Shown: positions 856 through 24,545, numbered from the stretch's first letter. The stretch is DNA of 64,000 nucleotides from Brevibacillus sp. SYP-B805 (GCF_011059135.1 NZ_JAALGD010000020.1:1-64000), one strand, 5' to 3'. Translations and numbers: made by a program. The notes: generated by a model from the letters alone, not told the origin.

Positions 856-962
856 GGGCCCCCGCCGACACCAGCAAGTGACCCCACTCGGCAAAGCATT
901 AGCGATCGCCGAGTGGGTGGATCGTTCGCTTGGGTCGGCGGGGTTATTTTTCCGCTTCTTCC
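856..962. repeat. Nested GC-rich palindromic repeat (REP/terminator-like family, copy R1).
   Basis: gggcccccgccgac...ccactcggcaaagc...gccgagtgg...gtcggcggggtt then a T-run. The outer arms cccccgccgac/gtcggcgggg enclose an inner hairpin ccactcggc/gccgagtgg. It lies between convergent genes, and the encapsulin stop (944-946) sits inside its right arm. Confidence 0.7.
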
Positions 963-1792
963 AGCGTGCAGATGGCGCTGGGGCGCTTGATGCGCAGCAC
1001 AACGCATTCATACACGCGGAAGACGCTGTTCATCTGTTCGTCCTCCATAAACGCAGTATTGAAATCTTCCGCGATGGCCAGATCGAGATTGTGGCGGCCG
1101 CACGACACCAGCACGCCGGCACGACCCTGGATGGCTGGCGTTTGGTAGACGCCCTCTGTCACCAGGCTGCGGATATGTTCGATTTCCAGGACGTTGGTTC
1201 CCTGATGCACACGATGGAGGAGCGAATACAGCTCCGGGGAGACCGCCAGTGCGTAAGGGCCGCTGTGCCCCATCTTCAGCAGCTTGTTGCGGGCTTCCAC
1301 GATATCGGCGAACGCATTGCCCGACTCCATCCAGTCGCTTTTCAGGTGGGTGAGCCTGCCTGTCACGTTCATCAAGCCGGGCAGCTCGAACGCCGGGGAA
1401 CCATTGAAGATGAGATCGTCCTCCAGGAGCGCGCACCCGGCGGCGGCATTGGCCGCCCCGCTGAAGTCGAGGGGAATGCCGAGCGTCCGCGCTTGCGAGA
1501 TGTCGCGCCAGTAAAGAACAAAATCGTTGTAGAGGATCGGAATCGTCAGGCTGACCCGCCGGCTGGGCTGGGTAAGTTCAAGGCCTTCGCCGCGCAGGTT
1601 TAACGCGCCGACACGCGATTCCTCATAGAGATCGTTGCTGATCGCCTGGATTCCTTCCCCCAACGGGCCGTAGATGTCAATGAACCGGCGGCCCACCAGC
1701 TGGCGCCGGGCCATCTCGACAACCGTTTCGTCAAGCTGGCGCCATTCGTCGGGGGAGAGGGGGGCGTCCGGAAATTTGTGATGCTTCTCCAT
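944..1792 (-). CDS. Family 1 encapsulin shell protein (linocin M18-like), 282 aa.
   Basis: Translation from the ATG at 1792 reads MEKHHKFPDAPLSPDEWRQLDETVVEMARRQLVGRRFIDIYGPLGEGIQAIS, the conserved family-1 encapsulin N-terminus. GGAGG lies 6 nt upstream (gaatGGAGGtatcatATG). The rest aligns with the HK97-fold shell protein through ...VFRVYECVVLRIKRP. Confidence 0.85.
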   Translation of the reverse strand: MEKHHKFPDAPLSPDEWRQLDETVVEMARRQLVGRRFIDIYGPLGEGIQAISNDLYEESRVGALNLRGEGLELTQPSRRVSLTIPILYNDFVLYWRDISQARTLGIPLDFSGAANAAAGCALLEDDLIFNGSPAFELPGLMNVTGRLTHLKSDWMESGNAFADIVEARNKLLKMGHSGPYALAVSPELYSLLHRVHQGTNVLEIEHIRSLVTEGVYQTPAIQGRAGVLVSCGRHNLDLAIAEDFNTAFMEDEQMNSVFRVYECVVLRIKRPSAICTLEEAEK

Positions 1793-2380
1793 ATGATACC
1801 TCCATTCCAAGCGTGATGAGCGTAGACTGCCAACGGCCAGCCCTTTTCCGGCGGGGAAACGGGGAGGAGGCTGCCTCCTTGCCGAAGCCAGCAGATGGTC
1901 CACCTGATGGATCGCGTGCCCTTCATCGTGATCCTCGACGGAAATGACGGCGCCGTGGTCGGACAAGCGTTCGCTCAGGGCTGCCATGATCTCCTTGACG
2001 GTCAGGTAATCGCTTTGGGTCTCTTCGCGCGTCCGGTTCAACCATTCTCGTTTCTCCGGATCGGTGAACTCATAGAGAGACAGCTCCAGATGCTCGCGAA
2101 AATTGTGCAGGCCGAAGCGTTCCAGATTGATGTCGGAAAGCAGGCGCGACAGCTCCCGGTCGCTCAGCTGCTCGCTGCCGGCAGTCAGGGAACGCAGATA
2201 GGGCAGCAGCTCGTTTAGCCGGCCGAGGCGCTGCTCTTCTTCTTCCATGATATGGTGGTAATAAAGACGCGTATGTTCATCCTGCGCATGGTCGACGATC
2301 GGCTGCAGCAGGGCGAGGAAACCGCCGATCGCTTCCCGGGTGCGGGTGAGGATGCTTTCAAGCTGCGAGAAGGCTTGCAA
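1793..2380 (-). CDS. Putative ferritin-like/IMEF-type encapsulin cargo protein with a C-terminal targeting peptide. It reads through in frame into the encapsulin ORF with no stop codon.
   Basis: The ORF starts at TTG 2380 (GGAGG 9 nt upstream). It is acidic and helical (DHAQDEHTRLYYHHIMEEEEQRL...EHLELSLYEF) and ends ...FPAGKGLAVGSLRSSRLEWRYH, which matches the encapsulin targeting-peptide consensus (G-x-L-x-V/I-G-S-L-R/K). The same frame continues into Met-1 of the encapsulin. I re-translated the junction by hand and found no stop. Confidence 0.6.
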
Positions 2381-2475: not shown

Positions 2476-2501
2476 ATCAATGAGAATGGTTTTCATTATT
2501 A
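2465..2501. promoter_or_regulatory. Two adjacent Fur/PerR-type 7-1-7 boxes.
   Basis: TGATAATATTTATCA (2465-2479) matches the TGATAATnATTATCA consensus at 14 of 15 positions. The next site, TGAGAATGGTTTTCATTATTA, matches the classical 19-21-bp Fur box at about 15 of 21. Both overlap the putative -10 between the cargo/encapsulin operon and the DUF2325 gene. Confidence 0.5.
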
Positions 2502-2558
2502 ATTGGCAACCTGAGAAGAAGTACATAAAACATCGGAACCGCGAAGGAGGAATATTTC

Positions 2559-2840
2559 ATGGCATCCATTTTGGTGGTTGGAGGAGACAGACTGGGCAAC
2601 ATCGTGGATTTGCTGCAAAACCAGGGGTTTCAGGAGGTGCATCATGTAAGCGGCCGGAAAAGCTCGCAGACCGGCATCAAGATTCCAAGCGGCGTGGATG
2701 TGATTTTGGTGCTGACCGATTTCATCAACCATAACCTGGCGAAAACCATCAAGCAGCAGGCGAAAGACAGGTGTCTGCCCATCCTGTTCTGCAAACGGTC
2801 GTGTGCCGCCATAGCCAAAGCCTTGTACCAGGTGGCCTGA
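2559..2840 (+). CDS. DUF2325-like small protein (93 aa).
   Basis: MASILVVGGDRLGNIVDLL...VILVLTDFINHNLAKTIKQQAK resembles the DUF2325 family of Firmicutes. RBS gaaggagg lies upstream of the ATG at 2559. Confidence 0.5.
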   Translation: MASILVVGGDRLGNIVDLLQNQGFQEVHHVSGRKSSQTGIKIPSGVDVILVLTDFINHNLAKTIKQQAKDRCLPILFCKRSCAAIAKALYQVA

Positions 2841-2900
2841 GCATACGGACGCTTGTACCCGGGCAGGATAAAAATATCCTGCATCAACCGGGAGGCCGAC

Positions 2901-3050
2901 ATGGAAAAGAAAAATCGTTTGGATGAATTGCCGATCGCCTCGCTGACCGAAGAGCAGCTCCGGCGCCTGAAACAGGCGGAGGACCAGCTCAATCAGGAGG
3001 GAAACGGCATCTATCTGATTGCGCTGCAAAAAGAAACCCCGTCGTCGTAA
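2901..3050 (+). CDS. Small hypothetical protein (~49 aa, MEKKNRLDELPIASLTEEQLRRLKQAEDQLNQEGNGIYLIALQKETPSS).
   Basis: Internal ATG of the 2853-3050 ORF, with GGGAGG nearby. I recognise no family. Confidence 0.3.
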   Translation: MEKKNRLDELPIASLTEEQLRRLKQAEDQLNQEGNGIYLIALQKETPSS

Positions 3051-3074
3051 CGGGGTCAGACTGATGACAAACGT

Positions 3075-3275
3075 ATGTTTGGGGTATGGCGTAATGGGGC
3101 CAGGCGAGCTCCTTTGACGACCGACGAAGCGGAGAAACAAAGACGCGGGGGCCACAGGGGGCGTGAGTCTCACATCCCTGAGACGCCCGGATGTTGAGCC
3201 CCCTGCCCGCGTCGCGTTTCGGAGCGGACAAAAGCCCACTTCCTCGCGGGTCGTCAAGAGAGCGAGCAGGAACCA
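3075..3275 (+). repeat. Full-length copy (B) of the ~190-nt structured repeat.
   Basis: atggcgtaatggggccaggcgagctcctttgacgaccg...gggcgtgagtctcacatccctgagacgccc...tgagccccctgcccgcgtcgcgtttcggagcgg...cgggtcgtcaagagagcgagcaggaaccat. The 5' segment gagctcctttgacgaccg is complementary to the 3' segment cgggtcgtcaagagagc, giving a long closing stem. There is an internal hairpin gggcg-tgag-tctca/tgagacgccc. Confidence 0.65.
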
Positions 3276-3367
3276 TTACCCAAGATCGACCGACCATATC
3301 TGCACATGGACCCCGTTGTCATAACGGGGTTTTTGCCGTTGAGCATCGCTTACGTAGGCGGGGTTAT

Positions 3368-3610
3368 TTAATCCAGAACCAGCCGGGCCAGATGCGGTTT
3401 CAGTGAATTAATGCCGATCGCAAAGCCCAGGCATTGGCTGGATTGAATGATAAAGGCGTTTAAGCCGACCACCTCCCCGTGCAAATTGATGAGCGGACCG
3501 CCGCTGTTGCCCGGATTGATCGCCGCATCGGTTTGAAAAATCTCTTCATAGTGGCGTTTGGCCACCTGCAGACGCCGGTTTTTGGCACTGATGATGCCGG
3601 CCGTGACCGG
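3368..3610 (-). pseudogene. C-terminal fragment of a trypsin-like (S1C/HtrA-type, no PDZ) serine protease gene, separated from its 5' half by the ~8.6 kb insertion.
   Basis: Minus-strand translation reads ...[58 protein letters not shown]..., which is the catalytic-Ser motif GNSGGPL. The frame is closed by TAG immediately upstream at about 3611. The N-terminal half (His/Asp region) is at 12195-12734. Confidence 0.75.
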
Positions 3611-3625
3611 ATTCTCACGTAAAGC

Positions 3626-5233
3626 CTAAAACGGCGGACGGAGATGCAGCTGACCGTTCAGGCGGAACGCGACCTCCAGGGTAAAGGGCGTGATGCGGCT
3701 GCCGGTCTGTTTTTCCCGGCGCGTGAGCCGCACCGATTCGATGAGGAAGCGCAGCAGCCTGTTTTTCTCCGCCTTGCCGCTCAAGGCGTGATAAACGGCG
3801 GGGAACGATTGGAGCCGCTCGGCGAGCCGTTCTTTTTGCCCATCATCCAGCTGTTGGGGAGACGGCTGTTTTTCTTTAAGGAGCATGTTCAGCCTGCCCA
3901 ATTGATCGGATATCTCTGACCGTCTCCGGATAAACTCCTCGGAAGTGTATACCCCGGTCTCAAAGCCGTGGTAGACGGCGGCCAGCTGTTTTTGCAGGGA
4001 TGTCCGCTGCCTGGACAGGGCGGCGGCGGATCGGTCGGCTGGGGAGGCTCGGCGCTGCTTTCCGGCCGCTGCATGGGCAGCGATCATGCGGCGGATCCGC
4101 TCCGGCGCGGGCGGCTCGACGCAGGCGAGAAAGGAGAGAAGCATCTCTTCCACGGCCCGGTACTTCACATAGGTGCAGCCTGCGGTTGTGCACCAGAGCA
4201 TCTCCTTTTCATAGACGCTCACGCTGCCGTCCTTTTTGCGATAGGTACAGCGGGAAGCCTGCCGCACCATCTTTTTGCCGCACAGTCCGCAGCGGATCAG
4301 GCCGGATAGTTCCGACGGGCTCTGGTCGAGAGGGATGGAGGGGCGGCGGCGCTGCCGTTTGTGATGCACCTGCTGGTACACGTCGGGAGAGATGATGGGG
4401 GGATGGGCATTTGGTACGATGATCCATTCGTCCGGCGGCCGTCTCGCGCGTTTCCGCTGTGTCTCAACCGTCGTGCTGTAGCGGATCTCCCCGATATATA
4501 CCGGATTGTGCAGGATTTTTTTAACCGCAGAGGCATTCCATTCCGGTAGCCCGGTGGGGGAAGGAATGCCGCTGTTGGTCAGGAGGGAGGCGATGGTCCG
4601 GCAGCCCAGCTCTCTCCCGTTCAGGCCCTCCAGGTACAGCCGGTAGATCAGCCGGACGACTTCCGCTTCCCCTGGCTCGATCACCAACCGCTGTGTCCTC
4701 GGATTGGTCCGGTAGCCGTAGGCGGGCCTGGAGCCCATGAAGCGTCCCGACATGGCGTAGGCGTATTTGGCCCCCTGCATCCGTTCGCGAATGGTTTCAA
4801 ATTCCTCGCGGGAGAGAAACATTTCGAAACGGATCTGCCGCAGATCGTTGACATTTTTGGGATCATACAGCCGGTAGGGGGTCAGGATGAAGATCCGTTT
4901 CCGACGGATCAGCTCGTAGACCCGTCCGTAATCCTGAAAATCGCCCCGCGTCAGCCGGGAGATTTCTTTCACGGCGATGCAGTCGTACCTGCCCTCCTCC
5001 AGATCAGCCAGTACCTGGCTGAAGACGGGCCGGGATTCGATCTTGTCGCCGCTGCCGATTTCCTCTGCGAGGTCGTAGGGAATGCCGTACTCGCCCAACA
5101 CGCGTTCCATGACGCTCCGCTGCATGGCGATGGTATCCTCGCCGGTCCGTTTTTCCCGTTCCGCATCTTCCCGGGAACGGCGGAGGTAGCTGACGATCCG
5201 CCTGATTCTTGCGCCTGCCGGCAGTTTGTTCAT
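3626..5233 (-). CDS. Large serine recombinase (535 aa; resolvase catalytic domain, recombinase domain, zinc ribbon).
   Basis: N-terminus ...IVSYLRRSREDAE...RPVFSQVLADLEEGRYDCIAVKEISRLTRG is resolvase-like. The central part PAYGYRTNPRTQRLVIEPGEAEVVRLIYRLYLEG...IPSPTG...WNASAVKKILHNPVYIG is recombinase-like. CGLCGKKM...C..GC is a zinc ribbon, followed by a C-terminal coiled coil. Confidence 0.85.
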   Translation of the reverse strand: MNKLPAGARIRRIVSYLRRSREDAEREKRTGEDTIAMQRSVMERVLGEYGIPYDLAEEIGSGDKIESRPVFSQVLADLEEGRYDCIAVKEISRLTRGDFQDYGRVYELIRRKRIFILTPYRLYDPKNVNDLRQIRFEMFLSREEFETIRERMQGAKYAYAMSGRFMGSRPAYGYRTNPRTQRLVIEPGEAEVVRLIYRLYLEGLNGRELGCRTIASLLTNSGIPSPTGLPEWNASAVKKILHNPVYIGEIRYSTTVETQRKRARRPPDEWIIVPNAHPPIISPDVYQQVHHKRQRRRPSIPLDQSPSELSGLIRCGLCGKKMVRQASRCTYRKKDGSVSVYEKEMLWCTTAGCTYVKYRAVEEMLLSFLACVEPPAPERIRRMIAAHAAAGKQRRASPADRSAAALSRQRTSLQKQLAAVYHGFETGVYTSEEFIRRRSEISDQLGRLNMLLKEKQPSPQQLDDGQKERLAERLQSFPAVYHALSGKAEKNRLLRFLIESVRLTRREKQTGSRITPFTLEVAFRLNGQLHLRPPF

Positions 5234-5318
5234 GGACTCACCCCGCTCGAACCAGGATAAGGAGAGCGCCCTTGTCAGGAGCGTCTCCTTGTTATCCAGT
5301 TTATTCGGCGATCCGTGA

Positions 5319-5795
5319 TTAATCCCAGATCAGGGGCCGCTCAAGCCCCGCCATCCGCATGTACTGCAGGAACTGGCCGGTATGCACCGCATCGTGGTAA
5401 GCGATGCGCAGCAGCATGTCACCCAGGGGGCGCTGATACCCGACATCGCTGCGGTCGATGATGCGCGTGTCCAGTTCGTCTTCATCCAGCGTCCGTATAT
5501 AGGCAAGGAACGCCTCAAACAGCGGTGTGCCCAGCGCGATTTCCCGTTCGACCGAGACGATCGGCTCCTCCTTGTAAGGAGCATCAGGGATCGCCGCATG
5601 GGCCGAACCGTTATGGAGAAGGATCTGATGGTACTCGAAGGTGGCCGTACACACATGACGGATCATTTCGCCAAAAGAGTAGGCTTCCTTGTCCGGCCTC
5701 CAGCCCAGCCACTCATCGGGCAGGGCTCGCCACGCAAGGATGGATCGGCGTCTGGTTTCTTGAAAATGAAGAATGATGGCATCGATGGCATTCAT
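5319..5795 (-). CDS. DinB/YfiT-like (DinB_2) metal-dependent hydrolase family protein (158 aa).
   Basis: ATG at 5795 with GAAGGAGG upstream. MNAIDAIILHFQETRRRSILAWRALPDEW...HDAVHTGQFLQYMRMAGL is typical DinB_2. The longer six-frame ORF (to 6407) is a GC-driven extension overlapping arsR on the other strand. Confidence 0.7.
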   Translation of the reverse strand: MNAIDAIILHFQETRRRSILAWRALPDEWLGWRPDKEAYSFGEMIRHVCTATFEYHQILLHNGSAHAAIPDAPYKEEPIVSVEREIALGTPLFEAFLAYIRTLDEDELDTRIIDRSDVGYQRPLGDMLLRIAYHDAVHTGQFLQYMRMAGLERPLIWD

Positions 5796-5861
5796 GGAAT
5801 AACCTCCTTCGCTCTGAATATCCCCATTGTACTGCATGAATGATTCGGTTATGATCGAAGT

Positions 5862-6563
5862 ATGAATGCATATCCTGATTTTGCCTATGTTGCCGGATTG
5901 ATCGGGGATCCCACCCGGGCGGCGATGCTGGACAGCCTTTTGGACGGCCGCGCTTTGCCGGCGAGTGAACTGGCTTATCTGGCCCGGGTATCGCCCCAGA
6001 CGGCCAGCGCCCATCTTGCCAAATTGGTCGAAGGGAAGCTGCTCGCGGTGGAGACGCACGGCCGTCACCGCTATTACCGTCTGGCCGGCGCGCATGTCGC
6101 CCAGGTGCTTGAGGCGCTGACCACCCTGGCGCCGCCCGTGCAGGTTCGGTCGCTCCGGCAGTCCGATCGGCTGAAGGAAGTGCGCCATGCCCGCACCTGC
6201 TATGACCATCTGGCCGGCCAGCTGGGGGTGGAGCTGACCCGGACGTTCGTGACGCGCGGATTCCTGCGGGAAGCGGATCGGGAGTACCGGATCACCGAGG
6301 TAGGGAAGCGCTGGTTTTCCGACTTTGGCATCGATGTGGAAGCGATCCGCCAAAAACGGCGCTCGCTTGCCCGTCCATGCCTGGACTGGAGCGAACGGCG
6401 CCACCATTTGGCGGGAGCATTGGGAGCCGCGCTTGCCAGCCGGCTGTTTGAGCTCGGCTGGATCGTTCGCGTCCCGTCAAGCCGCGCCGTGCGCATCACG
6501 GAGAAAGGGAGGGAACATTTGGCCCACCAGTTGGGCATCGAAACAGCAGGCCGGTTGACATAA
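5862..6563 (+). CDS. ArsR-family winged-helix transcriptional regulator with a C-terminal extension (233 aa).
   Basis: GLIGDPTRAAMLDSLLDGRALPASELAYLARVSPQTASAHLAKLVEGKLLAVETHGRHRYYRL is an ArsR/SmtB HTH. It is divergent from the DinB-like gene. Confidence 0.75.
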   Translation: MNAYPDFAYVAGLIGDPTRAAMLDSLLDGRALPASELAYLARVSPQTASAHLAKLVEGKLLAVETHGRHRYYRLAGAHVAQVLEALTTLAPPVQVRSLRQSDRLKEVRHARTCYDHLAGQLGVELTRTFVTRGFLREADREYRITEVGKRWFSDFGIDVEAIRQKRRSLARPCLDWSERRHHLAGALGAALASRLFELGWIVRVPSSRAVRITEKGREHLAHQLGIETAGRLT

Positions 6564-6847
6564 GACAATCCGCCGCTCACATACCCTTTTGGCGAGGGGG
6601 GAGCGAGGTGGAGCAGACGGCGCTGCTTGTCGTGAGAGGATCGTATGGGGAGATTCGCGTCACCCAGCCCGAAGCGCCTGCGCGCGAGTCTGAACTGGAG
6701 GAGCTGTATGCCTTTTTGATCGAAGCGCTGCTTCGGCAAGCGGACGGGGAACCGTCCGGCTAGCGTCTGCCGGCCAACTGCCCGGCAGGCTTTTTTTGTC
6801 AGAGAAGAAAGCTTAGTTCCTTAAAGTGATAAAGTGACAGGGAAAGG

Positions 6848-6896
6848 CTGGGGGCCCCGCCCGGCGCAGCGATAGCTCAAGCCGGGTGGGTTTTTT
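6848..6896. repeat. Short member of the GC-rich palindromic repeat family (R5).
   Basis: gggggccccgcccggcgcagcgatagctcaagccgggtgggtttttt, preceded by the family-typical AT-rich flank ttaaagtgataaagtgacag. Confidence 0.55.
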
Positions 6897-6985
6897 ATGC
6901 CCGCAGCGCATAATTACCGTTGTTCGATGGACTATATAACTGTCGATCTCTTCATCGTGGAGAAAAAGGCAGAAGGAGGTGAGCG

Positions 6986-7195
6986 GTGATGACGGTCGCC
7001 ATGCAGGTAAAGCAGACGCTGGCCAGCCTGAAAAGCGCCCAGGCCAACCTGGAAATGTTTGCGCTGGAAACGCAGAACAAGCAGGCGAAAGAGATGTACA
7101 CAAAGGCGGCACAAACGGCGAAAACCATCTGCGACACGCTGGAGAAGCGCGTTACGGAATTGGAGTTTGAGGAGCCGCAGTACAAAGGGTTTTGA
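6986..7195 (+). CDS. DUF1657 protein (69 aa), first gene of the spoVA2mob-type operon.
   Basis: MMTVAMQVKQTLASLKSAQANLEMFALETQNKQAKEMYTKAAQ... matches the DUF1657 family. GAAGGAGG lies upstream. Confidence 0.8.
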   Translation: MMTVAMQVKQTLASLKSAQANLEMFALETQNKQAKEMYTKAAQTAKTICDTLEKRVTELEFEEPQYKGF

Positions 7196-7227
7196 TTGCA
7201 GTGCGGGTATGTTAAGGAGGTTCATCC

Positions 7228-8088
7228 ATGCCGGGTTGGCTCACGATCATCATCACGTCCTTTGTCTCTCTGGCCTATCTCTTTACCCTGGCGAGGCTGA
7301 TCGGGAAACGGCAGATGTCCCAGCTGTCCTTCGTCGATTTCATCGTCGCGATGACGATCGGCTCGATTGCCGCTGAAATGGCCACCAATATCGACGGTTC
7401 CATCATCCATGGCATGATCGCCATGACCATGTTCGGCCTGTTTCCCATTGTCTCCGAATGGCTGGCAATGAAAAGCAAGGTGATGCGCAATTTTTTTGAA
7501 GGGAGCGCTACCGTTCTGATCAAGGACGGCAAGATCCTGGAAGACAATCTGAAGCAGGAGCGGCTGAATCTGGAAGACTTGATGGATATGCTGCGCAACA
7601 AGAACGTGTTCAAAGCGGCCGATGTGGAATTTGCCGTCATGGAACCGAGCGGCAAGCTGAGCGTGCTGTTGAAAGCGGAAAACCAGCCGTTGACGGCCAA
7701 ACAGTTGGGGCTGCAGGTCGCCCCGGCGGAAGAGCCGCAAAACGTGATCATGGACGGTCAGATCATGGATGAACCGCTGGCGACCATCGGCTTGAACCGC
7801 GCATGGCTGAAGGCGGAGCTGGAGAAAGCGGGCGTTGCGCTGGAAAATGTGTTTTTGGGCCAGGTGGACAAGGGCGGCCAGCTGTATCTCGATCTGTATG
7901 ACGACAAGATTCAGGTGGCCCAGCCGACGGCGATGAAGCTCACCTTTGCCACCCTGAAAAAATGTCAGGCGGATCTGGAGCTGTACGCGCTGGCCACCCA
8001 AAGCGAAAAGATGAAGAAGACCTATGCGGTGGAAGCCAAACGGTTGAAACAGCTGATTGAAAAAATGGAGCCGCATTTGATGCGGTAA
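7228..8088 (+). CDS. DUF421 (YetF-like membrane domain) fused to a C-terminal DUF1657 (the '2Duf' protein of spoVA2mob operons), 286 aa.
   Basis: The N-terminal TM region has the YetF-like core ...LLKAENQPLTAKQLGL.... The C-terminal 60 aa (MKLTFATLKKCQADLELYALATQSEKMKKTYAVEAKRL) repeats the DUF1657 motif. RBS AAGGAGG. Confidence 0.8.
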   Translation: MPGWLTIIITSFVSLAYLFTLARLIGKRQMSQLSFVDFIVAMTIGSIAAEMATNIDGSIIHGMIAMTMFGLFPIVSEWLAMKSKVMRNFFEGSATVLIKDGKILEDNLKQERLNLEDLMDMLRNKNVFKAADVEFAVMEPSGKLSVLLKAENQPLTAKQLGLQVAPAEEPQNVIMDGQIMDEPLATIGLNRAWLKAELEKAGVALENVFLGQVDKGGQLYLDLYDDKIQVAQPTAMKLTFATLKKCQADLELYALATQSEKMKKTYAVEAKRLKQLIEKMEPHLMR

Positions 8089-8102
8089 GGAGGGTGTGAG
8101 GG

Positions 8103-8579
8103 ATGGCTGACCACAAAAAGAAAAGGTTGACGCCTGTCCAGCTGCAGTACCAGGAGCTGGCCAAGCGGCATGAACCGCCCCGTCCGCTCGCCCGCAACTT
8201 CCTCCGCGCGTTTCTCGTCGGGGGGGTCATCTGCATCATTGGGCAGGCCATTCAAGAGATCTTTATCCGCTTCTTCCACTTTACGGAAAAAACGGCAAGC
8301 AATCCGACAGTGGCCGTCCTGATTCTACTTTCGGTGCTCCTGACCGGCTTTGGGGTTTATGACCGGATTGCCCAGTGGGCGGGAGCGGGAACAAGCGTCC
8401 CTGTCACCGGCTTTGCCAATTCGATCGCCTCCGCGGCCATCGAGCATCGAAGCGAAGGATACGTGTTGGGCGTGGGGAGCAACATGTTTAAACTGGCCGG
8501 GTCGGTCATTGTGTTCGGCGTTTTTTCCGCATTCGTCATCGGGGTGATCAAGGCGATCTGGAAAATGGGGTGGCAGTAG
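8103..8579 (+). CDS. spoVAC: Stage V sporulation protein AC (SpoVAC), 158 aa.
   Basis: ...FLRAFLVGGVICIIGQAI...IAQWAGAGTSVPVTGFANSIASAAIEHRSEGYVLGVG is characteristic of SpoVAC. RBS GGAGGG. Confidence 0.9.
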   Translation: MADHKKKRLTPVQLQYQELAKRHEPPRPLARNFLRAFLVGGVICIIGQAIQEIFIRFFHFTEKTASNPTVAVLILLSVLLTGFGVYDRIAQWAGAGTSVPVTGFANSIASAAIEHRSEGYVLGVGSNMFKLAGSVIVFGVFSAFVIGVIKAIWKMGWQ

Positions 8580-9584
8580 ATGCTGACAGGCCATCAAACC
8601 TGGGTATTTGCAAACAAACCGGTCATCGTCGGGTCGTCGGCCATCGGGGGCCCTTTTGAAGCAAAAGGACCGCTTGCCGACGATTTCGATACGACGCACG
8701 GCGACCTGATGCTGGGGCAGGACAGTTGGGAAAAGGCGGAGAAGGTGCTGTTCGAGGAAGCGAGCGACAAGGCGATCGAAAAAGCCGGATTGACCAAGGA
8801 GAAGATCCGTTTCCTGATCGGCGGCGATCTGCTGAACCAGCTCATATCCGCCAGCTTTGCCGCCCGCACGCTGGCCATCCCTTATCTGGGGGTGTTTGGC
8901 GCGTGTTCGACCGCCATGGAAAGCTTGGCGCTCGCCGCCCAGCTGGTCGATTCCCAGGCGGCCGATTATGTGTTGGCCGTCACGGGCAGCCACAACGGCG
9001 CGGCGGAAAAGCAGTACCGGTATCCGACCGAGTACGGTTCGCAAAAGCCCCCCACGGCCCAGTGGACGGTGACGGGGGCGGGGGCTGCCGTGGTGGCAAG
9101 AGAGGGCAGCGGCCCGCGGATCACGTCCGCCACGATCGGACGGGTCGTGGACATGGGGCTGTCCGATCCGTTCAACATGGGGGCGGCGATGGCACCGGCG
9201 GCGCTCAGCACCATTGAGGCTCACTTTCGCGACAGGCAGCTCGACTTCTACCATTACGATCTGATCGTGACCGGGGATCTCGCGCGGGTAGGCCACGCCA
9301 TCCTGTCCGAACTGCTGCCCAAGCACAATATCAAGATTCCGCTGGAGCGCTATGTGGATTGCGGCATGCTGATCTACGGGGACAACCCTGCCGTTTGGGC
9401 CGGGGGAAGCGGCTGCGGCTGCTGTGCCACCGTCACCTACGGCCATCTGCTGAACCGGATGCGGGAAGGCAAATGGCACCGCATGCTGGTGGTGGCGACC
9501 GGGGCGCTGCTGTCGCCCATGTCGTATCAGCAGGGCGAAAGCATTCCCTGCATCGCGCACGCCGTCTCCATCGAAAACGAGTAA
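8580..9584 (+). CDS. spoVAD: Stage V sporulation protein AD (SpoVAD), 334 aa.
   Basis: The thiolase-like fold with GDLLNQLI...GVFGACST...ERYVDCGMLIY matches SpoVAD. Its start abuts the spoVAC stop. Confidence 0.9.
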   Translation: MLTGHQTWVFANKPVIVGSSAIGGPFEAKGPLADDFDTTHGDLMLGQDSWEKAEKVLFEEASDKAIEKAGLTKEKIRFLIGGDLLNQLISASFAARTLAIPYLGVFGACSTAMESLALAAQLVDSQAADYVLAVTGSHNGAAEKQYRYPTEYGSQKPPTAQWTVTGAGAAVVAREGSGPRITSATIGRVVDMGLSDPFNMGAAMAPAALSTIEAHFRDRQLDFYHYDLIVTGDLARVGHAILSELLPKHNIKIPLERYVDCGMLIYGDNPAVWAGGSGCGCCATVTYGHLLNRMREGKWHRMLVVATGALLSPMSYQQGESIPCIAHAVSIENE

Positions 9585-9597
9585 GGGAGGACGAAAG

Positions 9598-9948
9598 ATG
9601 ACGTTTCTCTGGGCGTTTCTCGTCGGGGGAAGCATCTGTTTGCTGGGGCAGTTTTTGATGGATGTGGTAAGGCTTACCCCTGCGCATACCATGTCTGCAC
9701 TGGTCGTGGCCGGGGCGATTCTGGACGGTCTCGGCCTGTACGAGCCGCTGATCGATTTCGCCGGAGCGGGGGCGACCGTACCGATTACCAGCTTCGGCAA
9801 CGCCTTGGTGCACGGGGCGATGGCCGAGGCGGAGCGGCATGGTCTGGTCGGCGTCATCACCGGCATTTTCGAAGTGACCAGCGCGGGGATCTCGGCGGCG
9901 ATCGTCTTTGGCTTTTTTGCCTCGCTGGTGTTTCGTCCCAAAGGATAA
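9598..9948 (+). CDS. spoVAEB: Stage V sporulation protein AEb (SpoVAEb), 116 aa.
   Basis: MTFLWAFLVGGSICLLGQFLMD...FAGAGATVPITSFGNALVHGA. RBS AGGGAGG. Confidence 0.85.
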   Translation: MTFLWAFLVGGSICLLGQFLMDVVRLTPAHTMSALVVAGAILDGLGLYEPLIDFAGAGATVPITSFGNALVHGAMAEAERHGLVGVITGIFEVTSAGISAAIVFGFFASLVFRPKG

Positions 9949-10031
9949 TGGCAGGGAACGTGGCAACACGGCCGTGACCGAGTTTTCCAAACCAAGCGGA
10001 GAACCGCCTGCATCCATAGGGCTGCATGGGG

Positions 10032-11465
10032 CTAGTGAAACTCAATGCGCGTGATGGCAGGAGGGCGGCTTTCCGCCTGTATGTTTTTCACCAGGATGGT
10101 GATGAGCTGTTTTTTTTCCCGAATGGTGGCAAACGGCCACACCCGCGTCCAGTCGGTGAGGAGGGGAACAAGCTCTCCGCCGCGCGGGGAACGGCCGGCC
10201 TGCGCCGCCAACAGGGAGCGCAAAGCCGCTTCCTGCTCGCCGGCCTCCTCCATCCGCTCCCGAAAACGTTCCAGCGTGAGGGCCCCTTCCGCATAGGCCT
10301 GTTCCCACCGCGCCACCATCTGCTGCAGTTTTTCCAACTGTCCCTCCAGCAGGCGGCCAGGAAGGGAGAGCGTGCGCGTTTGCAGCGCTGCTTCGGCCAG
10401 GTCGGCTGCGCTGGCAACCCGCGTCAACCATGGCAGAAACAGCGCTTCCAGGCGGTCTTCCCGGATGGAGGCGGACGGACAGCTTTTTCGTTTCCGGTTT
10501 TGGCAGACGTAATACCGGTTGGTGTAGCGCTTTCCCGTCTGGTTGCGCGTGCGGATCGTTTTGCCGTACATGGGGGCCTCGCAATCGGCGCAGAAGAGGA
10601 CGCCGGAAAAGGGAAAATCGGAAGCCAGCGCGCGGGGATGCTGCCGGGTCCGCGCCTGCTGCAGCCGTTGGACGAGAAGAAACGTCTCTTTGTCGATGAT
10701 GGCGTCGTGCGTCCCCTCCCGGATGATCCAGCTGTCCGGGCTGTTTCTTTTTTGGCCGCCCTCGGCGTAATTCCAGCGCAGGGCGCCATAATAGACCGGA
10801 TTTTTCAGCATATGGGAGAGGGTCGTTTGATTCCACGGGCCGCCCGTCCGGCTCCGGAAGCCAAGGCGGTTCAGCTCGTCGGCAATGCCGCTGATCCCGA
10901 CCCCCGCGAGATATCTGGCGAAAATCAGGCGGACGAGATCCGCTTCCATCGGCTCCACATGCAGGACGCCATCCTGCAGCCGATACCCATAGGGGGGCGG
11001 GCCGCCCGGCCGTTTCTGCTCGCGCGCCATCTGCCCCATGCCCAGTTTGACGCGTTCCGCCAGATTTTCCCGCTCCCACTGTGCCAGCGCCGCCACCAGG
11101 GTGATAAAGAGGCGGCCGATCGCCGTTGTGGTGTCGTACACTTCCGTGCAACTGCGAAAGGAGACGCCATGCCGCTCCCATTCTTCCAGCAGGGAATAGA
11201 GGTCGAGCACGGACCGTGTCAGCCGATCCAGCCGATATACCAGGACGACATCGACCGCCCCCCTGCGTACATCGCGCAGCAGGCGCTGCAAGGCGGGACG
11301 GTCCGTATTTTTGGCGCTGTATCCCTCATCGATGTAGCAATCGTGAATGTGCATCCCCTGCGAACAGGCGAACCAGGTCAGCTTCTCCCGCTGGGCGGAG
11401 ATGGAGAAGCCCTCTTTGGCCTGTTCCTCGGTGCTCACGCGGATATAGAGCGCGGCCCTGTTCAC
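10032..11465 (-). CDS. Large serine recombinase (477 aa).
   Basis: GTG start with GAGGTGA upstream. (M)NRAALYIRVSTEEQAKEGFSISAQREKL... is the catalytic Ser motif. It has a recombinase domain, zinc ribbon (CADCEAPM...C) and coiled coil. Confidence 0.9.
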   Translation of the reverse strand: MNRAALYIRVSTEEQAKEGFSISAQREKLTWFACSQGMHIHDCYIDEGYSAKNTDRPALQRLLRDVRRGAVDVVLVYRLDRLTRSVLDLYSLLEEWERHGVSFRSCTEVYDTTTAIGRLFITLVAALAQWERENLAERVKLGMGQMAREQKRPGGPPPYGYRLQDGVLHVEPMEADLVRLIFARYLAGVGISGIADELNRLGFRSRTGGPWNQTTLSHMLKNPVYYGALRWNYAEGGQKRNSPDSWIIREGTHDAIIDKETFLLVQRLQQARTRQHPRALASDFPFSGVLFCADCEAPMYGKTIRTRNQTGKRYTNRYYVCQNRKRKSCPSASIREDRLEALFLPWLTRVASAADLAEAALQTRTLSLPGRLLEGQLEKLQQMVARWEQAYAEGALTLERFRERMEEAGEQEAALRSLLAAQAGRSPRGGELVPLLTDWTRVWPFATIREKKQLITILVKNIQAESRPPAITRIEFH

Positions 11466-11516
11466 GGCATCATCACCTCACGATTCGCGGATTATCCTGC
11501 TAGATCGGAAAGTAAG

Positions 11517-11610
11517 GCTGGGGCCCCCGCCGACAACAGCAAGGGCCACACTCGGCACAGCGATAGCTATCGCCGAGTGGGTGGAGACTCAGCTTAAGTC
11601 GGCGGGGTTA
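11517..11610. repeat. Nested GC-rich palindromic repeat (R2).
   Basis: ggggcccccgccgacaacagcaagggccacactcggcacagcgatagctatcgccgagtgggtgga...gtcggcggggtta. Confidence 0.7.
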
Positions 11611-11715
11611 GTTAATTTGATCATACAGGGATGGGACGCCGCATATGCCTTTATCGGGCACAAAAAAGCCTCATCCTCCTGTCGATCGATCGGACAAGGA
11701 AGGATCAGGCGTCCG

Positions 11716-12045
11716 TTACATCCATTTATGGCTCCATTCTTCAATGGATTCTATCACAGGCCGGAGATCCGTACCTTTCTGCGTCAGCTGGTATTCGATG
11801 CGCACCGGCGTTTCCGGGTATACTTTCCGTTCGATGATGCCTTCTTCTTCCAGTTCCTTCAACCGCTCTGACAGCATCTTGTCGCTCATCTGCGGGACGA
11901 TTTCCCTGACATCCTTGAAACGGACGGGACCTCCCAACAGGACGCGGATGATCAGCCCGGTCCAGCGTTTGCCCAGTATGCTGATCGCCGCTTCGTATTT
12001 CGGACACATTTGCGATTTCGGATTCGATTGGTCCATGCGGCACAC
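11716..12045 (-). CDS. HxlR-family (MarR-like) transcriptional regulator (~105 aa).
   Basis: CPKYEAAISILGKRWTGLIIRVLLGGPVRFKDVREIVPQMSDKMLSERLKELEEEGIIERKVYPETPVRIEYQLTQKG is the HxlR signature. Confidence 0.8.
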   Translation of the reverse strand: MCRMDQSNPKSQMCPKYEAAISILGKRWTGLIIRVLLGGPVRFKDVREIVPQMSDKMLSERLKELEEEGIIERKVYPETPVRIEYQLTQKGTDLRPVIESIEEWSHKWM

Positions 12046-12194
12046 TCCTGTACTTCTGTTCTACCTCTTTACTGTACCATAATAACTTGACAAAAGTAAG
12101 TGGCGGATTCCAGGCATTCCTGCTGACGGGCTTCCCGCACGGCAGGCGCGGCCGCCACGCGGGGGAAACATATGGCTTGCAGCCCTATGCCGCA

Positions 12195-12734
12195 AGTCGG
12201 CGAACCGATGCTTACTACCCATTCGCCCACTTTCGTTTCAGCGGAATCGCCGAGTGGGAGCGGCTTCAGCAGGGTGTTGGCGTTTATTTTGAGTACCGCA
12301 TAATCCCGCGTACGATCGCTTGCGATCCGTTCCGCCTCGAAGACCCGGCCGTTGTAAAGCTTGACGAGGGTCGATTTCGATTTGCCGATGACATGTTCGC
12401 TCGTCAAAATGTAACCGCGCGGATGAAAGATAAAGCCTGAGCCAAAACTGCGCTCCGTTGTATATGTTTCAATCGAAGGCTGAGTCACGAGAAAATCGCG
12501 CAGGAACTGGTCGAGCGGCCCGCCGTTGGACTTGTCTTCCGACACGATGGAGACGACCCCCTCTTTCACCTGTTCGACCAGAGGGACGAAAAAATTGAAC
12601 GGATGCAAACTGCTGCTCACCGGATAATTTTTCCTTACATATGCGGACCATTTTCGATGTTTCATCCACAGATCCTCCCACAGCAGATAGGTATGTATCA
12701 TTCTATGGCTGAGGGGGGAGGGAGGGACGCCCAA
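12195..12734 (-). pseudogene. N-terminal portion of the interrupted trypsin-like serine protease gene.
   Basis: ...GSGFIFHPRGYILTSEHVIG...DYAVLKINANTLLKPLPLGDSAETKVGEWVVSIGSP contains the catalytic His and Asp regions. After SIGSP the frame runs into unrelated sequence, the element junction, and stops at 12069. Confidence 0.7.
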
Positions 12735-12891
12735 TTATTGTCAGGCGGTCATGTGTAACCATGGCTATCATTGATACAGAAATAGTATTGGTATAATAAA
12801 ATTTTTCATTTTATAATAAAAATGAACAGGAGGCTATTTTTTTTGTACTTGTTGAGTTTGAGCTTGCAGAGGCTAGTCTGGAGGATGCTGT

Positions 12892-13428
12892 ATGGACGTG
12901 AAAACAATCATTTTGGGCTTTCTGAACGAGGGGGAAATGAGCGGTTACGACCTCAAACAGGCGTTTTCCAACTGCATCGGGTTTTTCTACGATGCAAGCT
13001 TTGGTGCGATATATCCTTCCCTGCGCAAGCTGGAAGAGGACGGCTGTGTCACGAAGCGGGAGGTCATTCAATCGGGCAAACCGAATAAAATCCTGTATCG
13101 GATCACGGAAAAGGGAAGGGAACTGTTCCATCAGGAAATGATGAGCCCGATCCTGCCGCCGGTGTTGCGCTCCGACATGCTGGTCAAGTTCTTTTTTGCC
13201 GGCGGGCGTTCGGAAGAGGAGCAGCGCGAATTGTTGAACAACGGTCTCCAGATGCAGAAAAACCTGCTGAGCAAAAGCAAAAAGGCTTATGTTCAAATGG
13301 CCGATTCGTTTAATGACTTTCAAAAATTTTGCTGGCAGTATTCCCTGCACCATTTGGAGTCGACCATCCATTTCCTGGAGAAGAATGCGCCGGAATTGCT
13401 GAAGCAGACGAAAACACTGAACGTGTAA
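12892..13428 (+). CDS. PadR-family transcriptional regulator (178 aa).
   Basis: ILGFLNEGEMSGYDLKQAF...GAIYPSLRKLEEDGCV...KILYRITEKGRELF is the PadR wHTH. Confidence 0.8.
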   Translation: MDVKTIILGFLNEGEMSGYDLKQAFSNCIGFFYDASFGAIYPSLRKLEEDGCVTKREVIQSGKPNKILYRITEKGRELFHQEMMSPILPPVLRSDMLVKFFFAGGRSEEEQRELLNNGLQMQKNLLSKSKKAYVQMADSFNDFQKFCWQYSLHHLESTIHFLEKNAPELLKQTKTLNV

Positions 13429-13545
13429 CCGGATACCGCGTCCCCGTGTGGAACCAAAAAAGCGAAATTCCCCCGCACATTTCGCTTTTTGTTTGGCAGA
13501 TCGGAAATTTAAAGCTGTTTAAAGTGATAAAGTGACGAAGAAAGT

Positions 13546-24340: not shown

Positions 24341-24545
24341 TCTGGGGATGGTTGGGCCCCCGCCGACAACAGCAAGAGACTCCGCCTGGCAAAGCGTTCG
24401 CTGGCACCGAGTGGGGTGGAGCGTTAGCATTAAGACGGCGGGGTATGGTAGGGGGCCTACCCGGCGCAGGGAGGGACCCCACTCGGCAAAGCATTAGCTG
24501 GCGCCGAGTGGGTAGAGCGATAGCTCAGGCCGGGTGGGGTTTCTT
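24341..24545. repeat. Two tandem nested palindromic repeats of the GC-rich family (R6).
   Basis: gggcccccgccgacaacagcaag...ggcaaagcgttcgctggcaccgagtgggg...gacggcggggtatgg, then gggggcctacccggcgcaggg...ccactcggcaaagcattagctggcgccgagtggg...caggccgggtggggtttc. It lies between convergent genes. Confidence 0.6.

Follow-up and report, generated by a model that had tools for sequence, protein, structure and literature searches.

A probable tandem of two serine-recombinase elements within one HtrA-like protease gene of Brevibacillus sp. SYP-B805

An 8.6-kb insert splits the gene for an HtrA-like protease in Brevibacillus sp. SYP-B805, in the 64,000-nucleotide stretch of DNA that we analysed (GCF_011059135.1 NZ_JAALGD010000020.1:1-64000; hereafter the window). 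A preliminary description of this DNA spoke of an element with a recombinase at each end, and suggested nested or tandem elements. The evidence below argues strongly that the insert consists of two integrative elements, independent of each other and arranged head to tail. Each has its own large serine recombinase (LSR) and its own pair of left and right attachment (att) sites. One, which we call E2, spans 2,201 bp (10001-12203), carries genes for an HxlR-family regulator and LSR2, and has TC as its crossover dinucleotide. The other, E1, spans 6,371 bp (3603-9975), carries LSR1, a small open reading frame (ORF), ArsR and DinB genes and an operon resembling spoVA2mob, and crosses over at AC. The insertion point of E2 is the TC of GGT-TC, within the G-S codons of SIGSP. 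E1 is inserted 27 bp farther downstream in the protease gene, at the AC of GTC-AC in the V-T codons of VTAG, and the DNA between the two crossovers is 27 bp of host gene.

The four att sites, all read on the minus strand, define these elements. In attL2 (12175-12228, TC at 12203-12202) a B arm of the protease gene meets the P'2 arm, which holds CATAGGGCTGCA and is an inverted repeat of the P2 arm at 10006-10031. Its partner attR2 (9977-10031, TC at 10002-10001) consists of the P2 arm CCCCATGCAGCCCTATGGATGCAGGCGGT, TC and a B' arm. For E1, attL1 (9950-9999, AC at 9975-9974) joins a B arm through AC to a P'1 arm that begins with GGCCGTGTTGCCACGT, and attR1 (3580-3630, AC at 3604-3603) joins a P1 arm ending in TTTACGTGAGAATCCGGTC to the B' arm GGCCGGCATCATCAGT. 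In the 84-bp gap between the stop codons of LSR2 and SpoVAEb, element arms lie on both sides of 37 nt that come from the protease gene. On the minus strand the LSR2 stop is followed by CCCCATGCAGCCCTATGGATGCAGGC, then by the protease piece (9969-10005; GGTTCTCCGCTTGGTTTGGAAAACTCGGTCACGGCCG, which encodes GSPLGLENSVTA), and then by TGTTGCCACGTTCCC up to the SpoVAEb stop. The 37-nt piece occurs once in the window, where none would be expected by chance, and what it encodes is precisely the part that lies between the two fragments in intact orthologues (SIGSPLGLENSVTAGIIS). The att-like sequence that the preliminary description had envisaged in the interior is thus present at 9950-10031, as attR2, 27 bp of protease and attL1, and the same arrangement recurs in every locus that has both elements.

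The symmetry of the reconstructed sites agrees with these assignments, in which the exact crossovers were inferred from sequence. Reconstructed attP2 contains a perfect 12-bp inverted repeat, TGCAGCCCTATG / CATAGGGCTGCA, set 12 nt from TC in each direction. In 28 loci, complementarity between the two arms of attP2 averages 19/30 positions, versus ~7.5 for random sequence; the repeat sequence varies by lineage, yet both arms stay matched, and TC is invariant in all 28 attL2/attR2 pairs. The attP1 arms carry ACGT at -16..-13 on both sides of AC and are complementary at 12-19/30 positions, and attL1 and attR1 share an 11-nt direct repeat, GGTCACGGCCG.

Removing both elements in silico restores the protease gene. 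Its N-terminal fragment (12203-12665, minus strand, from the ATG to the TC in GGT-TC, …SIGS) encodes part of an HtrA-like (S1C, PDZ-less) protease with a Trypsin_2 match, and the C-terminal fragment (3368-3604, minus strand), identified by sequence match, contains GNSGGPL. Joined at TC and AC, the pieces give an ORF of 241 aa. It aligns colinearly, at 73% identity, with the uninterrupted orthologue of Brevibacillus sp. H7, and the two proteins are identical in the junction region (SIGSPLGLENSVTAGIIS). No stop or frameshift interrupts either fragment or the middle piece. Because the elements lie between the catalytic His and Asp on one side and the catalytic Ser (in GNSGGPL) on the other, the split gene cannot give an active enzyme. 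The N-terminal fragment is 60-76% identical to orthologues in 34 Brevibacillus loci, with conserved ribosome-binding site (RBS) and start, and in 18 Brevibacillus loci a motif, TGGGCGTCC-N17-CATAAGATGATACATACCTA, is almost invariant just before the RBS (window 12666-12790). Orthologues with organism names are from Brevibacillus and from a small number of related Bacillales genera: Aneurinibacillus, Ammoniphilus, Hydrogenibacillus, Thermoactinomyces, Hazenella and Brockia. An Rfam scan of positions 2500-13500 returned no RNA families.

Both recombinase genes lie on the minus strand, and the preliminary description was right about their shared orientation and lengths. LSR1 (3626-5233, 535 aa) is an SprA-family enzyme whose stop codon falls 22 nt before the AC of attR1; LSR2 (10032-11465, 477 aa, GTG start) stops 30 nt before the TC of attR2. 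In each element, then, the gene ends 22-30 nt short of its own P arm, and an integrase gene next to attP is the usual layout. The two genes share an orientation, each at the same end of its own element, because each adjoins its own attP arm. LSR2 had also been described as abutting the right junction with HxlR after it. Its start is in fact ~740 bp from that junction, HxlR lies between them, upstream of LSR2 in the direction of transcription, and it is the 3′ end of LSR2 that adjoins an att site, the internal one.

The two recombinases are clearly different proteins, as had been proposed. Both contain Resolvase, Recombinase and Zn_ribbon_recom domains (PF00239, PF07508 and PF13408 in Pfam), the zinc ribbon of LSR1 scoring exactly at the Pfam cut-off (25.3 bits), and they share 27% identity (BLASTP). 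Their alignment reveals unlike N-termini (YLRRSRED... versus YIRVSTEEQ) and unlike zinc-ribbon cysteine spacing. A database protein of Brevibacillus sp. SYP-B805 is 100% identical to LSR1. Along its entire length LSR1 aligns with SprA/YokA of SPbeta (E 7.5e-118, residues 9-526 versus 11-533), and it is 38% identical to yokA of SPbeta-like phages, the next-best phage integrases reaching 28%. LSR2 matches only generic LSR parts and not SprA at full length. By these comparisons, LSR1 and LSR2 belong to different clades. Neither reaches the NCBIfam cut-off for XisF, and an exact look-up of the two window proteins in the contig collection gave no match.

Related loci contain the two modules separately. 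We scanned one genome per species with the N-terminal protease fragment, annotated the resulting 34 loci by tblastn with the window proteins, and recorded the state of 36 related loci, the window included. These share a synteny of M29 peptidase, PadR, protease, small ORF, DUF2325 and encapsulin genes. The protease gene is intact in five of the 36 and holds E2 only in 21, where YheCD ATP-grasp, HxlR and LSR2 genes are followed by the remainder of the protease gene ~100 bp past the LSR2 stop, E2 being ~3.3 kb long. Seven loci, the window among them, have both elements, the LSR2 module being followed by a second module that ends in LSR1; one (B. dissolubilis) has an LSR1-type element without LSR2; and two are truncated by a contig end. 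The modules are thus separable, and the two recombinases do not always occur together. Homologues of both, in the same order and in the same protease gene, occur in B. migulae and one further assembly, with recombinase identities of 57-69%.

Support for excision comes from Brevibacillus sp. H7. Its chromosome has an intact protease gene (L006:10430-10520), and a homologue of LSR2 is found on a separate 4,192-bp contig, JBIYSM020000087.1 (L041), along with HxlR, YheCD and a flavodoxin-like gene. The two ends of this contig share 77 bp, as expected when an assembler follows a circular path, and its closure, TTTGCCCCTATGAACAGAGGCGGT-TC-ACCGCCTGCCGCCATAGAGGCAAA, is the predicted attP2. The contig is an excised E2 captured in a public assembly, and provides assembly-level evidence that E2-type elements excise precisely at TC.

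E2 is an old, vertically inherited resident of Brevibacillus, and E1 is a later arrival from an element family with changeable cargo. Between pairs of loci, the identity of LSR2 rises and falls with that of the M29 peptidase encoded next door by the host (Spearman rho 0.83), as do the identities of HxlR and of the protease fragments, and the promoterless C-terminal protease fragment has a ratio of nonsynonymous to synonymous substitution rates (dN/dS) of ~0.02 in split genomes versus 0.04 among intact genes, values of rho and dN/dS that are rough, and p-values that mean little, with dS saturated (~2) and the pairwise comparisons non-independent. The split gene is under purifying selection. Vertical inheritance of E2, together with selection on the gene that it splits, argues that the gene is regularly rebuilt.

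The window copy of E2 is the smallest that we have seen (2,201 bp versus 2.9-3.5 kb) and has no YheCD gene. Its HxlR-family regulator (11716-12045, minus strand; Pfam HxlR, E 2.5e-32) shares 70-83% identity with its counterpart wherever an E2 has one, and is much better conserved than LSR2. In H7 the HxlR gene is divergent from that of a flavodoxin-like reductase, an arrangement which suggests that HxlR is a cargo regulator. Between the HxlR terminator and the LSR2 start, E2 elements conserve the motif GGCATAA-N19-TAGACTCTAGCA (e.g., L013:12084-12203; window 11466-11715), probably a promoter or operator of LSR2. In the window this spacer also holds a palindromic repeat of ~80 nt (11525-11605; minimum free energy -52.5 kcal/mol, z -6.5). 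The repeat is absent from the HxlR-LSR2 spacer of other loci and has related copies at 6852-6891, upstream of the spoVA2mob-like operon, and at ~24511-24531; it is probably a sequence of this genome resembling repetitive extragenic palindromes or miniature inverted-repeat transposable elements (REP/MITE-like).

We propose that LSR2 would recombine attL2 with attR2, and LSR1 attL1 with attR1, each reaction freeing one circle and leaving one attB. The order of excision would be free because the two attB sites are independent of each other, and the 241-aa protease ORF would return only once both elements had left. Serine-integrase sites with unlike central dinucleotides are not known to give viable recombinants. 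The pair attL2 and attR1 would not be a substrate for excision of the whole insert as one unit, because their central dinucleotides differ (TC versus AC). Judged by their sequences, the window copies of E1 and E2 appear to be still active.

A directionality factor for LSR1 may also be encoded in E1. In SPbeta, sprA lies at one end and the gene for the directionality factor SprB (YotN, 58 aa) at the other, each adjoining an att site. E1 elements encode a small ORF of 46-56 codons with a good RBS on the strand opposite LSR1, with homologues in five of them; in B. dissolubilis and B. fluminis it lies directly at attL1. B. fluminis and locus L040 have ORFs of 54 and 67 aa at the corresponding place, matched here by position. 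The window copy, a 51-codon ORF (6608-6763, plus strand), is the best tblastn match to SprB in the element, a weak one (28% over 53 aa, E 0.78), and is predicted to fold as a β-hairpin plus a helix. It has no match in Pfam, PHROG, PDB sequences (phmmer) or phage tblastn searches, and Foldseek with a single-sequence model returned no informative PDB match. It is reasonable to hypothesize, from position and sequence, that this ORF is the candidate directionality factor of LSR1. The preliminary description had suggested that it, the ArsR gene and the DinB gene were cargo of a left sub-element; all three do belong to E1, but the small ORF is part of the conserved backbone of E1-type elements, not cargo.

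When would the gene be rebuilt? Excision in the mother cell during sporulation is, on our analysis, the most economical reading. This timing is favoured because an element that persists by vertical descent within a gene under selection requires some cell type whose excision events are not passed on. Sporulation-timed excision has analogues in skin, SPbeta and gin (PMC4191935, PMC5499854, PMC5595907). The motifs upstream of the protease gene and of LSR2 did not fit the sigma-E, sigma-K or sigma-G consensus, their spacings being unlike it.

Apart from the roughness of rho and dN/dS, several observations weigh against a pair of active elements excised at sporulation. The excision product is known from the H7 assembly, a strain other than SYP-B805. 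The AC crossover was placed by symmetry, direct repeats and frame alone, and the P1 arm is offset by ~2 nt in two loci (L032 and L002). A database entry for SYP-B805 (P0122) gives LSR2 as 305 aa lacking the catalytic domain, although the window ORF is an uninterrupted 477 codons with a GTG start and YIRVSTEEQ; the entry is probably a start-codon miscall. No directionality-factor candidate emerged for LSR2, and a profile comparison of the 51-codon ORF with SprB (hhalign) gave a weak match (E 0.003, probability 10%). The CATA-rich region upstream of the protease gene, with its nearly invariant motif, has no Rfam match and no assignable sigma factor, the protease is not known as a sporulation gene, and none of the sources found for its orthologues gives them a sporulation name. 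In addition, the palindromic repeat at 11525-11605 interrupts the conserved promoter-like region upstream of LSR2.

That disruption, together with the reduced size of this E2 and its missing YheCD, would fit a view of the tandem elements as inert relics in SYP-B805 and of the protease as permanently inactivated. The gene is also uninterrupted in the five related loci mentioned above, and no element copy was seen for four of them. We nevertheless consider this view improbable. Neither recombinase ORF is shortened, and both match the catalytic domain; at each of the four att sites the core dinucleotides still agree and the arms are still symmetric; and the gene fragments and the 27-bp piece reassemble perfectly. 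Strong purifying selection on the promoterless C-terminal fragment across split genomes would, moreover, be hard to explain unless the gene were regularly rebuilt.

Far less survives of the proposal, one of the options in the preliminary description, that the insert is a single element whose recombinases act jointly, as a CcrAB-like pair, at its outer junctions (12203 and 3603). In its favour, the two genes are intact and share a strand, a circle formed from the whole insert would place them on either side of the joined ends, and three distant genomes keep both. However, the outer junctions differ in dinucleotide (TC and AC), and their arms are unrelated; the modules are separated by the internal sites attR2 and attL1, with 27 bp of host gene, making four att sites in all; each module occurs alone at the same locus elsewhere, and the H7 circle contains E2 only. 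Against the NCBIfam equivalog cut-offs of 700-900 bits for CcrA, CcrB and CcrC, LSR1 and LSR2 score 96 and 192 bits. We attach next to no weight to this proposal. An element nested inside another is just as hard to credit: a two-recombinase layout would by itself permit it, but the DNA between the modules is protease codons, in the right order and frame and protein-identical to intact orthologues, and E2-only loci end at the same attR2 and continue directly into the rest of the gene. Because the sequence between the modules is protease coding DNA and not element DNA, the second insertion hit the host gene and not the first element. Of the tandem accretion at one protease att site that had been suggested, the tandem stands and the shared site does not, the two att sites being 27 bp apart. 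Our own first model took the insert as a single element and joined 12205 to 3625 in frame at a core of CTT or TA. The internal att sites overturned it; the resemblance behind it had come from mimicry of attB by the P1 arm.

Returning to the two tandem elements, the cargo of E1 is exchangeable. At higher window coordinates than LSR1 lie a gene for a DinB_2-family protein (5319-5837, minus strand; Pfam), also present in L040, and one for an ArsR-family regulator (5862-6563, plus strand), also found next to LSR1 homologues in L001 and L040. The spoVA2mob-like operon (6986-9948, plus strand; Pfam) comprises five genes: DUF1657 (6986-7195), 2Duf, that is DUF421+DUF1657 (7228-8088), SpoVAC (8103-8579), SpoVAD (8580-9584) and SpoVAEb (9598-9948), all on the plus strand and assigned by Pfam, the last three also by NCBIfam. 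SpoVAC, SpoVAD and SpoVAE score above curated cut-offs (TIGR02838, 205 bits versus 164; PRK12404, 596 versus 442; TIGR02839, 171 versus 131). A conserved motif of the type GYATAA…CAYTCTA upstream of the operon appears to resemble forespore promoters. Operons of this kind are the E1 cargo in the window, B. migulae, L002 and L003. In B. fluminis (L039:1512-9880) and in a Brevibacillus metagenome-assembled genome (MAG; L007:6500-12650) the cargo is kdpFABCD + MpsC, with kdpFABC and kdpD called in B. fluminis, and KdpD and a KdpB-type ATPase checked in L007. B. dissolubilis carries a tad/flp pilus operon, and L040, the closest LSR1 relative, has the ArsR, DinB and small-ORF backbone and no spoVA genes.

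Several further loci deserve mention. In B. dissolubilis (L037:11640-12050) the C-terminal protease fragment and the P1 arm are inverted relative to the N-terminal fragment and LSR1. This arrangement makes inverted repeats of attL1 and attR1, and recombination between them would turn the 11-kb tad-pilus element around instead of excising it; an error of assembly could also be the cause. In Aneurinibacillus soli (L042:2772-9025) an insert of ~5 kb that contains a relative of LSR2 (47% identity) separates two fragments of a LysM-LysM-GH18 gene; these fragments cover GH18 profile positions 72-182 and 223-316. This insert looks like another gene-intervening element, in a spore hydrolase gene of the YaaH/YdhD type, and hints that the LSR2 clade favours sporulation genes. 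Two loci labelled 'Candidatus Bathyarchaeia archaeon' (L003 and L034, from MAG SMAG_U10784) contain the Brevibacillus protease locus with both elements, at 74-90% protein identity to the window; this bin is contaminated or mislabelled. Elsewhere in the window, an IMEF ferritin-like cargo domain (PF24309) and an encapsulin shell domain (PF04454) are joined in a single 478-aa ORF (944-2380, minus strand); B. dissolubilis, B. fluminis and L040 have IMEF and encapsulin as two adjacent genes.

The elements resemble, and differ from, several known systems. The skin element, with its recombinase SpoIVCA, interrupts sigK in B. subtilis and Clostridioides difficile (PMC4191935, PMC5025042). Like skin, E2 is an LSR element that splits a protein-coding gene, is vertically inherited and rebuilds the ORF by precise excision; it is likewise small, cryptic and co-diverging with its host, with the split gene under purifying selection. 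Unlike skin, it targets an HtrA-like protease and not sigK, spans 2.2-3.5 kb and has no phage genes. E1 recalls SPbeta, which splits spsM, in that LSR1 is a full-length SprA relative and E1 elements also have LSR1 at one end and a small conserved ORF on the opposite strand. It differs in being a 6.4-kb non-phage element with another target gene and spoVA2mob-like cargo (elsewhere kdp or tad), and the similarity of its small ORF to SprB is no more than suggestive. The gin element in gerE of Bacillus cereus ATCC 10987 is a non-prophage gene-intervening element that uses a serine recombinase and is excised during sporulation (PMC5595907). In contrast with the elements described here, gin is a single element of 28.6 kb, with another target and a recombinase of another clade.

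Tandem arrays of integrative elements have also been described (PMC7192596). Such arrays, and the composite islands of staphylococcal cassette chromosome mec (SCCmec), share with the window several elements side by side at one locus and internal att sites. There, however, the same restored att core is reused, often by the same integrase type, whereas the window has two LSR clades and two attB sites. The E1 operon has the gene families and forespore-type promoter-like motif of spoVA2mob (PMC5133452, PMC10126465), which is carried on Tn1546 in the B. subtilis group with a seven-gene order that includes YhcN/YlaJ and a second DUF1657 gene (PMC5133452). It differs in having five genes, not seven, in another order and without YhcN/YlaJ, and its vehicle is a serine-integrase element without transposase, not a Tn3-family transposon like Tn1546.

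Our literature search found no description of this locus or of any Brevibacillus gene-intervening element. The components are all of known kinds; what is new is the target gene, the small and ancient E2, the spoVA2mob-like cluster on a serine-integrase element, and the use by two unrelated integrases of attB sites 27 bp apart in one ORF. The HtrA-like protease thereby joins the short list of spore-former genes split by recombinase elements. E2 is unusually small (2.2-3.5 kb) and old, and is present in most of the Brevibacillus species sampled. With adjacent, non-interfering attB sites in one ORF, the function of the gene depends on two separate excisions. The spoVA2mob-like cluster, relatives of which raise spore heat resistance in food-spoilage Bacillus, has a second vehicle besides Tn1546. 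For genome engineering, the locus offers two integrase/att pairs defined to within a few bases and dozens of co-varying attP2 variants as material. It is possible, although we do not yet lean towards it, that the protease is a 'double-locked' developmental gene. E2 would then be a domesticated switch excised in the sporulating mother cell since early in the genus, SprA-family elements would repeatedly have used the neighbouring 40 bp as a second safe harbour, and the LSR2 clade would be general interrupters of sporulation genes. If so, the germ line would carry a forespore-expressed spore-resistance operon within a gene whose reconstruction is confined to the dying mother cell.

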